Shown here piece by piece: positions 10,175 through 12,188 of a stretch of DNA of 64,000 nucleotides. The notes below the pieces were generated by a model. The model made no database searches and had not been told where the DNA came from. It worked only from the letters and a program-made list of their open reading frames with translations. Every line of letters begins with the position of its first letter. The first letter of the stretch is position 1. The stretch lies in IMG/VR virus record IMGVR_UViG_3300032287_001394. One strand, written 5' to 3'. The position numbers were made by a program, and so were the translations under genes. Source of the DNA: a virus.

Positions 10175-10372
10175 ATGATGGCATTAAAATTAGAATTAGA
10201 ACTACAAGAAGTTAATATGGTGTTAAATTCTTTAAGCAAACACCCGTTCGACGAAGTGGTAAATCTTATCGCTAAGCTTAGATCACAGGCTTCAACTCAA
10301 CTAGCTGAACAGTCTAAGGCAGAAGCACCAGCGGAAGCAGAAGCACCAGCAGAAGCACCAGCTGCAGAATAG
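10175..10372 (+). CDS. Small hypothetical protein with Ala/Glu/Pro-repeat tail
   Basis: AAGGAG SD; AEAPAE repeats. Confidence 0.7.
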   Translation: MMALKLELELQEVNMVLNSLSKHPFDEVVNLIAKLRSQASTQLAEQSKAEAPAEAEAPAEAPAAE

Positions 10373-10439
10373 TCCCTGTACTAGTAAGTTTTAATACTTT
10401 TAACTAGTAGCTTTTGGGCAGCTGGCGCATAAGTACTTA

Positions 10440-10468
10440 TGTACATTAAATCAAAATCATGGTATAAT
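10440..10468 (+). promoter_or_regulatory. Early-type promoter for pqqA
   Basis: TGTACA-N17-TATAAT; overlapped by palindrome CATAAGTACTTATG (10428-10441). Confidence 0.85.
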
Positions 10469-10592
10469 GTATTTGTATGATTGAAAAATTATACATAGTT
10501 GTATAGGCCTCAAGGTAGACCTTTATCTTTAATGATATCTCTACTGACATGAGTTTATAAACGCAATATTTTATAAACAAAGGAGAACTACT

Positions 10593-10664
10593 ATGTGGAC
10601 AAAACCAGCTGCTACTGAAATGCGCTTCGGTTTCGAAGTTACAATGTACGTAATGAATAAGTAA
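10593..10664 (+). CDS. pqqA: PQQ precursor peptide PqqA ([23 protein letters not shown]), not in ORF track
   Basis: 23 aa with W-x-K-P start and the invariant E-x-x-x-Y (EVTMY); AAGGAG SD; own promoter and terminator. Confidence 0.95.
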
Positions 10665-10680
10665 TTATTCAGGTGCATTA

Positions 10681-10705
10681 AAAGGGGCCTCAGGGTCCCT
10701 TTTTT
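10681..10705 (+). terminator. Rho-independent terminator after pqqA
   Basis: AAAGGGGCC-TCA-GGGTCCCTTTTTT. Confidence 0.8.
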
Positions 10706-10720
10706 ATTTGTTGGGGCCTA

Positions 10721-10749
10721 TGTACATTAATTAATTGTTGTGGTATAAT
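10721..10749 (+). promoter_or_regulatory. Early-type promoter for bS21 cluster
   Basis: TGTACA-N17-TATAAT. Confidence 0.85.
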
Positions 10750-10780
10750 GGGTATATAGTAGTATCAAAGGAGATTCAAA

Positions 10781-11041
10781 ATAGCTATACAAAATAAAAA
10801 GTTTAAACCAAAACAGACTGACTCTAAGCAAGGTCTATTCGTAGACGTGCAAGAAGGTCAATTTGAAAAAGCATTCCGTAAGTTCAGAAACAAAGTAGAG
10901 GATTCTGGCTTATTGATTGAATTAAGAGAACGCATGGAATATGAAAAGCCATGCACTGCTCGTAAGAAGGCTAAGAGCCAAGCTAAGAAACGATGGCTCA
11001 AAAAAGTAGCATCAACACAACCACCAAAAAAACTATATTAG
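10781..11041 (+). CDS. rpsU: Ribosomal protein bS21 homologue (probable ATA start at 10781; ORF track starts at GTG 10847)
   Basis: VDV..GQFEKAFRKF...GLLIELRER..YEKP...RK; AAGGAG 7 nt before in-frame ATA. Confidence 0.88.
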   Translation: MAIQNKKFKPKQTDSKQGLFVDVQEGQFEKAFRKFRNKVEDSGLLIELRERMEYEKPCTARKKAKSQAKKRWLKKVASTQPPKKLY

Positions 11042-11116: not shown

Positions 11117-11316
11117 TGGCAGCAAAGAACGATATTACTGGAGACAGTATCTTATCTAAGTCAAGCTCAAAGGCTTTTGATAAAGGGTTTGATGGCATCG
11201 ATTGGTCAGTTAAGCTTGACACTCCTAAAGACGGTGATCAAAGACTTAACAATGAAGGTAAACTTGAACGTTATTATGGAGGAGAATGGTGTGCAACACA
11301 TCAAAAAGAAGGCTGA
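11116..11316 (+). CDS. Small hypothetical protein (KNDITGD type seen in T4-like phages)
   Basis: Translationally coupled ORF. Confidence 0.7.
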   Translation: MAAKNDITGDSILSKSSSKAFDKGFDGIDWSVKLDTPKDGDQRLNNEGKLERYYGGEWCATHQKEG

Positions 11317-11527
11317 TTTACCAAGAATAGATATAGCTGCAGTACTCACAGCTCATGAAAAGACGCGTGAAGGTAATCGTTATACTATGATTATCGAAGC
11401 TGCTTATAGAGCAAGAGACATCGAAAAGAGACGAGATTTCCTAGACCGTAAATCTGAGAAGCTGCATTATTACGGTTATAAGCCAATCAATCAAGCATTA
11501 CAAGATATCATAGATGACGCAGCCTAA
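11291..11527 (+). CDS. RNA polymerase omega subunit (RpoZ)-like protein
   Basis: GNRYTMIIEAAYRARDI and KPINQALQDI resemble the RpoZ NRF-LV--AA-RA and K----AL-EI blocks; GGAGGAG before GTG 11291. Confidence 0.65.
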   Translation: MQHIKKKADLPRIDIAAVLTAHEKTREGNRYTMIIEAAYRARDIEKRRDFLDRKSEKLHYYGYKPINQALQDIIDDAA

Positions 11528-11708: not shown

Positions 11709-12188
11709 ATGCGAACAACAAACGTTTCATTTGGCCCTATTTGGCCATCATCAGTTGGTTTTGACAACATCATCAATGAGCTAGACGCTTTAATGCATGC
11801 TCAAACACCAACATCAACATTCCCGCCTCACAACATTATTAAAGTAGACGATTATAACTACATCGTAGAATTGGCAATCGCTGGCTTTAATAAACAAGAG
11901 GTAACTATCACCCTTAAAGATTCAGTGCTTGAGATCAAAGGACAAAAAAATCCTGAAGAAGAAGTACAGTATCTACATAAGGGTATTGGTACAAGATCAT
12001 TCGTTAAATCCATCAAGCTTGCTGATACTGTAGAAGTTGTTGGATCAGCTGAGTTTCAAAATGGTGTGTTACGTATAGCTCTTTGTAATGTTATTCCTGA
12101 TTCTAAGAAACCTCGTAATATAGAGATCATAGATGATTTGGTAGTGGTTAAAAAACAAAAAGAGTTATTAGTAGAAAACGATAGTTAA
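11709..12188 (+). CDS. Small heat shock protein (Hsp20/IbpA family)
   Basis: FPPHNI, ELAIAGF, YLHKGIGTRSF, NGVL. Confidence 0.95.
   Translation: MRTTNVSFGPIWPSSVGFDNIINELDALMHAQTPTSTFPPHNIIKVDDYNYIVELAIAGFNKQEVTITLKDSVLEIKGQKNPEEEVQYLHKGIGTRSFVKSIKLADTVEVVGSAEFQNGVLRIALCNVIPDSKKPRNIEIIDDLVVVKKQKELLVENDS

Follow-up and report, generated by a model that had tools for sequence, protein, structure and literature searches.

Stand-alone pqqA unit of a T4-like phage

A small pqqA transcription unit was found in a T4-like phage genome, within a stretch of 64,000 nucleotides (IMG/VR virus record IMGVR_UViG_3300032287_001394; this whole stretch is called the window below), and we consider it likely that the unit is a phage-borne auxiliary metabolic gene, captured as a whole mini-unit from a Methylophilaceae host and feeding the PQQ synthesis of the host for methanol oxidation. 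This reading draws on the identity of the gene, the anatomy of the unit, the promoter family to which it belongs, its host-type leader, purifying selection on the peptide, wide occurrence among phages and the lack of other pqq genes nearby.

Identification of the pqqA gene

The open reading frame (ORF), as read from the sequence, has 23 codons followed by a TAA stop. Its translation exceeded the cut-offs of both curated profiles, Pfam PF08042 (PqqA) and the NCBIfam equivalog TIGR02107 (Table 1), which confirmed the PqqA identity proposed in the initial annotation. PqqE cross-links the Glu-x3-Tyr pair of PqqA, and a peptide was counted as PqqA if it had such a pair and a length of about 20-40 residues; the 23-residue phage peptide has Glu15 and Tyr19 in an E-V-T-M-Y core. 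This core was invariant in all 23 host copies examined (five genomes; copies located with the TIGR02107 profile), and its invariance in 120 viral copies is by design of the search pattern. In PHROGs, a family for the PqqA peptide was not found. By these profile and residue matches the ORF is a genuine PqqA gene and no chance match.

Table 1 Features of the pqqA unit and of the region just upstream of it in the window
Feature	Position	Strand	Basis
Conserved AT-rich box upstream of promoter	10391..10406	+	Exact 16-mer occurs once in window
Phage-type sigma-70-like promoter	10440..10468	+	Consensus scan, 10/12 matches with TG; one of 13 motif copies
Predicted 5'-terminal hairpin of transcript	10475..10494	+	MFE and centroid fold of 10475-10712; single-sequence prediction
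Leader hairpin HP1	10509..10547	+	Alignments A1 and A2; covariance model R1; no Rfam match
Leader hairpin HP2 (9 bp)	10553..10578	+	MFE and centroid folds; ends 1 nt before Shine-Dalgarno site
Shine-Dalgarno site	10580..10585	+	Seen in sequence, 7 nt before ATG
pqqA	10593..10664	+	PF08042 42.4 bits (cut-off 21.1, E 6e-11); TIGR02107 40.4 bits (cut-off 20); peptide identical in Methylophilus, Methylotenera and other Methylophilaceae
Intrinsic terminator	10680..10709	+	10-bp stem (10680-10703) with 5 G-C pairs, 4-nt loop, then T run

Promoter, leader and terminator

The five parts of the unit described in the initial annotation, namely promoter, leader, Shine-Dalgarno (SD) site, ORF and terminator, were each recovered where it had placed them. 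The promoter consists of a -35-like hexamer (10440-10445), a 17-nt spacer and a TG-extended -10 element (10460-10468). Its composite motif (a ten-base box in the -35 region, ten variable bases and a TATAAT -10) was found 13 times on the plus strand of the window, compared with 1.6 copies expected from shuffles, and the copies are spread over 2090-52473 (e.g., at 2090, 4532, 10440, 10721, 17247, 23808, and 30689). The other copies lie upstream of replication and nucleotide-metabolism genes, including those for DNA polymerase and bS21. This recurrence identifies the pqqA promoter as a member of a phage-wide promoter family and no chance match, and pqqA would be expressed alongside the early/middle replication genes, from a phage promoter set before a foreign leader. 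The conserved -35-region box extends to about -26, beyond the plain sigma-70 -35 element, and could be the site of a phage activator.

The distance from promoter to start codon is mostly 10-35 nt at the other copies, and pqqA is exceptional, with 124 nt between the -10 element and the ATG. The leader measures approximately 118 nt from a predicted start near 10475 to the ATG at 10593. At the other end of the unit, the next promoter copy (10721-10749), which belongs to the bS21 gene, begins 12 nt past the pqqA terminator. An SD-like site was present in 114 of 120 viral pqqA loci and in all 23 host copies examined, and a strict terminator test was passed by 61 of the 120 viral loci.

Genome context of pqqA

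All genes in the window are on the plus strand, and its G+C content is 37.6%. Pfam scans placed genes for a gp46/Rad50-like protein, the sliding clamp gp45, the clamp loader proteins gp44 and gp62, and RegA upstream of pqqA. Directly downstream are bS21 behind the second promoter copy, an omega-like ORF and Hsp20, and these are followed by DNA ligase, DNA polymerase, thymidylate-synthase-like and dCMP deaminase enzymes, UvsX, a DnaB-like helicase, and ribonucleotide reductase. pqqA is located inside a bona fide phage gene block with the same strand throughout, and the same arrangement was found on a 160,679-bp contig (ENA ERZ28594391, scaffold_8), whose pqqA unit is 100% identical to that of the window. 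The exact RegA protein was present on at least 21 metagenome contigs, and exact 41-mers from the pqqA unit gave no match in IMG/VR or among JGI metagenome contigs. The DNA polymerase of the window is at most 53% identical to that of any GenBank phage, the nearest being cyanophage-type T4-like phages, and megablast of the first 25 kb against GenBank phages gave no match. Core genes so distantly related to the cyanophage type say little about the host. No tRNA genes were found in the window.

The statement in the initial annotation that no other pqq gene is present in the window also held. tblastn with PqqB, PqqC, PqqD, PqqE, XoxF, and the second PQQ dehydrogenase of Ca. Methylopumilus universalis found nothing in the 64 kb, and Pfam scans of the 40 larger ORFs of the window showed no pqq gene. 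A methanol dehydrogenase was looked for in the same 64 kb and was not found. The stand-alone status of pqqA covers these 64 kb of a genome of approximately 160 kb. An integration-site (attP-like) remnant was also considered as an origin of the element and was dropped, because the phage is T4-like, nothing is missing from the ORF or its signals, and the 40 larger ORFs scanned include no integrase.

Several neighbouring ORFs had features of their own. The 65-residue ORF right after regA (10175-10372) has a C-terminal Ala/Glu/Pro-rich repeat and gave no Pfam or PHROG match; its position and its N-terminal part are conserved in the T4-like relatives L062, L029, L061, and L088. In the bS21 region (10721-11041), the first in-frame ATG/GTG/TTG codon (GTG at 10847) lacks a clear SD and its use would truncate the domain, and a strong SD precedes an in-frame ATA at 10781; the bS21 call has 86 residues in the relatives L282 and L283, compared with 64 in the window. 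The ORF at 11177-11527 gave a sub-threshold match to RNA polymerase omega/Rpb6 (23.5 bits; cut-off 26), and it is followed by the Hsp20 gene (11709-12188).

The peptide points to a Methylophilaceae host

The C-terminal core pattern was scanned against one genome per prokaryotic species, which gave at least 120 stretches that were sorted by peptide identity. Among the matches listed, those with 23/23 and 22/23 identical residues came from Methylophilaceae only, and all named matches of at least 20/23 were from this family (Methylophilus, Methylotenera, Methylobacillus, Pseudomethylobacillus, and Ca. Methylopumilus). Chromosomal PqqA in Methylophilus, Methylotenera, and further Methylophilaceae is 23/23 identical to the phage peptide; for Ca. 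Methylopumilus the value is 22/23. Lower values among the matches listed were obtained for Methylovorus, which is also a member of the Methylophilaceae (18), and for Burkholderiales MAGs (17-19), and the lowest groups among them were Methylophaga (15-16) and Methylococcales (12-14). The closest matches of the sorted peptides were therefore not outside the methylotrophs, and Methylophilaceae are supported as the host family, in agreement with what had been proposed from the peptide at the outset.

Methylophilaceae have 3-12 pqqA copies versus one set of the remaining pqq genes (Beck et al. 2014, PMC4109929). In five genomes of the family, we counted 3, 5, 7, 8, and 3 pqqA matches and one or two pqqE matches each, and in Ca. 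Methylopumilus universalis (1.27 Mb) all three pqqA copies were far from pqqBCDE. The 23 host copies examined all had 23 codons and a strong SD 5-7 nt upstream, and most of them had an intrinsic terminator approximately 15-45 nt downstream; in its sequence layout, the phage unit is a copy of the anatomy of these dispersed orphan pqqA units of the host. PqqB, C, D, and E were present once in each candidate host genome examined, xoxF was also present in candidate hosts, and Ca. Methylopumilus universalis encodes one further PQQ-dependent dehydrogenase in addition to XoxF. Uptake of PQQ from outside may occur in some hosts, since the media for isolating OM43 strains routinely contain added PQQ (PMC9004378).

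Occurrence of pqqA in other phages and selection on the peptide

tblastn against 50,697 GenBank phage records found PqqA with 77-100% identity in ten genuine phage records (Venkman, P19250A, MEP301, MEP401, MEP402, four Melnitz, and one uncultured Caudoviricetes), nine of which are Methylophilales or Methylophilaceae phage isolates. The only other matches were on two contigs of one assembly named "Acinetobacter phage MD-2021a". We rejected this assembly as a case of a non-methylotroph phage with pqqA, as the one contig examined (L278; CAKLQF020000010.1, 106710-109763) is a misfiled bacterial contig with ppk-pqqA-pqqB-pqqC. The initial annotation had expected that gene callers miss pqqA, and this was borne out: six of the ten genuine records have no feature at all at the gene, the Melnitz feature is on the wrong strand, and of the at least 21 metagenome contigs with the same phage as the window, six were read and none of the six has a call for pqqA. 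In one Melnitz record (L277; MZ577097.1, 2961-3066), pqqA lies between hypothetical genes and a tRNA-Leu gene. The hypothetical protein on the opposite strand over Melnitz pqqA is probably a miscall.

With a degenerate seven-residue pattern, at least 120 IMG/VR contigs with pqqA were found, and every match listed was a genuine ORF of 23-25 amino acids. In 1.02 Mb of flanks of the IMG/VR pqqA matches listed, there was no PqqB-E or XoxF.

[quoted passage not shown] Within IMG/VR, contig L035 is related to the window at 94%, and six further T4-like contigs have pqqA just downstream of regA with a DNA identity of 66-73%, which means that pqqA is old in the T4-like lineage. The peptide is identical on six population variants, including ones with differing leaders.

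Two of the variants, L282 (CAYYHW010000002.1, 3633-5016) and L283, have an identical RegA and extra genes between pqqA and bS21. The extra gene is a 128-residue ORF in L282 and a 136-residue ORF with glycine-zipper matches in L283, and in L282 a NUMOD3 homing-endonuclease-like ORF comes after bS21. The pqqA leader of L282 is shorter and different, and has neither the phage promoter nor HP1.

Recently transferred host DNA could also be carried as a neutral passenger with no role in the phage, since the peptide is identical to host copies and a unit so small and self-contained is easily acquired. But pqqA occurs in several unrelated phage lineages and on the at least 120 viral contigs, it still follows regA at approximately 30% DNA divergence, synonymous changes exceed nonsynonymous ones, the gene is driven by a consensus phage promoter, and the spread in DNA identity among viral copies is wide (64-100%). 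We disfavour a neutral origin of this kind and regard it as extremely improbable.

A structured leader shared with small-genome hosts

Hairpin HP1 in the leader consists of an invariant 5' hexamer and 3' trimer around a covarying helix of 5-6 bp, a conserved internal loop, and a variable inner stem; the sequence of the helix varies among lineages, and its complementarity is kept. With the covariance model R1, which was built from ten HP1 examples, HP1 was detected in 13 of 121 viral pqqA loci, three of them outside the training set. Of 151 Methylophilaceae genomes sampled, 10 had HP1, always as a single copy, and all ten are 1.2-1.4 Mb in size. In these ten small genomes HP1 was always 90-101 nt before a pqqA start codon, and in all five genomes checked for copy number the pqqA with HP1 heads a tandem pqqA pair. 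Beyond the window, HP1 was found in these 121 loci and 151 genomes only upstream of pqqA, in phages and in small-genome Methylophilaceae. A -10-like hexamer lies 6-8 nt before HP1 in the small-genome hosts, so HP1 is probably the 5' end of their pqqA message. In the window, the phage promoter adds approximately 35 nt ahead of HP1, with a further predicted hairpin (Table 1).

Analysis of 21 distinct leaders showed that 99.4% of HP1 cells were paired, compared with 19-46% in slid-partner controls, and that four pairs were changed on both sides, in 28 cells, counts which lean towards structure because the first examples were chosen by the conserved hexamer and the later ones by the structure-aware model. 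The observed covariation score was reached by no shuffle. Rfam 15 had no match to the leader; the best overlap, Hatchet, scored 15.1 bits (gathering score 51; E 4.3), no more than expected by chance. A hairpin at the place of HP2 was present in 17 of the 21 related leaders with unrelated sequences. RNAalifold on a MAFFT alignment of the leaders recovered HP1 alone, and HP2 is a prediction from single-sequence folds since its sequence is too variable to align. Many single-sequence folds also paired the invariant bases just 5' of HP1 with the SD site, a pairing beyond the reach of a covariation test because both sides are invariant. The whole predicted transcript folded better than 200 of 200 shuffles (z = -3.2).

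From these features we tentatively raise the idea, which we hold to be rather unlikely, that the pqqA leader (HP1, HP2, and SD) is an undescribed cis-regulatory RNA of OM43-type Methylophilaceae that was captured with the gene by several unrelated phages and gates translation or stability of the message for the PQQ precursor, so that the phage copy would still be plugged into the control circuit of the host. Gating could work, for instance, through two competing pairings of the invariant bases 5' of HP1, one with the 3' side of HP1 and the other with the SD site, and the signal might be a small molecule or a protein connected with methanol or PQQ metabolism.

The AT-rich box upstream of the promoter

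Among 278 loci, the exact 16-mer of the AT-rich box in the window (Table 1) was confined to the region upstream of pqqA in two phage relatives, L035 and L117, the latter with two copies, and a near copy is kept in L282 despite its different leader. The host loci (L243-L276) showed an AT-rich, partly palindromic box approximately 110-130 nt upstream of the pqqA ATG, followed by half-site-like repeats. This host box is placed some 40-80 nt upstream of the -10 element and is present upstream of most Methylophilaceae pqqA copies; the host-type box was also seen upstream of pqqA in several phage loci (e.g., L029, L088, L070, and L084). It looks like the operator of a regulator of precursor supply. 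The box in the window stands at the equivalent position and is similar to this operator-like box but distinct in sequence; it may be a diverged form of it, a guess drawn from their resemblance only.

The RNA and DNA signals might even outweigh the peptide, in that box and leader titrate or exploit a host regulator of pqqA, or the leader acts as a regulatory RNA, and the ORF is kept mainly as a part of the cassette. HP1 is strongly conserved with compensatory changes and is common to hosts and unrelated phages, the box is kept in L282 where the leader was replaced, and the folds allow the invariant bases 5' of HP1 to pair with the SD site, all of which would fit. However, only 13 of 121 viral pqqA loci have HP1, whereas the ORF is intact in all of them and an SD is present in 114 of 120; selection is purifying at the amino-acid level, and the peptide stays identical across relatives with differing leaders. 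We consider a role mainly for the signals to be quite improbable.

Proposed role in PQQ supply during infection

In the reading that we prefer, an auxiliary gene feeding the PQQ synthesis of the host, a phage promoter of the early/middle type would drive a short RNA of approximately 230 nt that ends at its own terminator, and translation would give a peptide identical to host PqqA. Host PqqD/PqqE, PqqB, and PqqC and peptidases would then convert this peptide, one molecule per PQQ, and the product would be the PQQ cofactor of the XoxF/MxaF methanol dehydrogenases. With PQQ supplied from the phage peptide, methanol oxidation, which is the energy source of the cell, would continue while the T4-like infection shuts down host gene expression. 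In this scheme, the timing of expression, the action of host enzymes on the peptide, and a higher PQQ level or phage yield are predictions, and it is assumed that PqqA, rather than PqqB-E or XoxF, limits the PQQ supply during infection. Two observations strengthen the inferred role in PQQ supply: the host family keeps 3-12 pqqA copies versus one pqqBCDE set, and the viral copies are under purifying selection.

PQQ could also be made for something other than methanol dehydrogenase, such as other quinoproteins of the host or an antioxidant function in infection. The second PQQ-dependent dehydrogenase of Ca. Methylopumilus universalis would leave room for this, and the window has no specific link to methanol. 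On the other hand, within the phage collection methylotroph phages were the only ones with pqqA, a mislabelled bacterial contig being the lone apparent exception, and a published relative has a methanol dehydrogenase together with PqqA (PMC7678222), so we judge another use of PQQ to be unlikely. It was further considered that the peptide is a substrate of phage radical-SAM enzymes encoded elsewhere in the genome, which would make a product other than PQQ; viral radical-SAM genes have also been tied to PQQ by Coutinho et al. (PMC7678222). The phages with pqqA are mostly small (35-45 kb), however, and showed no relative of PqqE or PqqD in their flanks, which makes such a product very unlikely.

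Relation to known systems

Viral pqqA had been supposed in the initial annotation to be already noted in metagenomes, rightly so: PqqA was reported in a T4-like virus from Lake Baikal (population VP_266) with a predicted Methylophilaceae host, and was proposed as an auxiliary gene boosting PQQ for methanol oxidation (Coutinho et al. 2020, Microbiome 8:163, PMC7678222). The window phage resembles VP_266 in being T4-like, in its low G+C, in the Methylophilaceae host signal and in the PqqA gene, but the Baikal representative encodes methanol dehydrogenase and peptide deformylase, neither of which is in the 64-kb window. That paper has no description of a transcription unit, a leader RNA, or pqqA in cultured phages (PMC7678222).

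Compared with the orphan pqqA of hosts, the phage unit has the same or a nearly identical peptide and the same mini-unit of SD, 23 codons, and terminator, and it shares the HP1/HP2 leader with the small genomes of the OM43 type. The two differ at the front end: in the phage, a promoter of the phage family lies approximately 35 nt upstream of HP1, whereas in hosts HP1 appears to be the start of the leader, which stands at the head of a tandem pqqA pair, and the sequences of their upstream boxes are different. The cultured Methylophilales phages (Venkman, P19250A, MEP301, MEP401/402, and Melnitz) have the same 23-codon gene, with a peptide 77-96% identical and without pqqB-E. These phages are unrelated (podo-, sipho-, and myovirus types), and the gene is unannotated in them or called on the wrong strand; the isolate papers on MEP301, MEP401/402, Venkman, and Melnitz do not mention pqqA.

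Photosynthesis genes of cyanophages, such as psbA, are the textbook auxiliary metabolic genes. As with psbA, the phage replenishes a component of the host that is lost by turnover or by use, and so sustains energy generation during infection. The difference is that the pqqA product is no enzyme subunit but a RiPP precursor peptide that is consumed, with the processing machinery left to the host.

As viral pqqA and the role proposed for it have been in print since 2020 (PMC7678222), the picture of the field is unchanged, and the leader RNA and the promoter swap alone go beyond published work. The finding helps to assign the host: in a phage with core genes that are only distantly cyanophage-like, no host marker is better than this 72-nt gene. 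Because standard gene callers do not see pqqA, it is undercounted in host prediction and in surveys of auxiliary genes in methylotroph viruses. The structured leader shared by phages and hosts is a small testable RNA element for the control of cofactor supply in abundant methanol oxidisers. For the Methylophilaceae and their phages, the gene points to the precursor peptide, and not the enzymes, as the part of PQQ synthesis that would be worth resupplying in infection, an idea that fits the many pqqA copies kept even by host genomes of 1.3 Mb.
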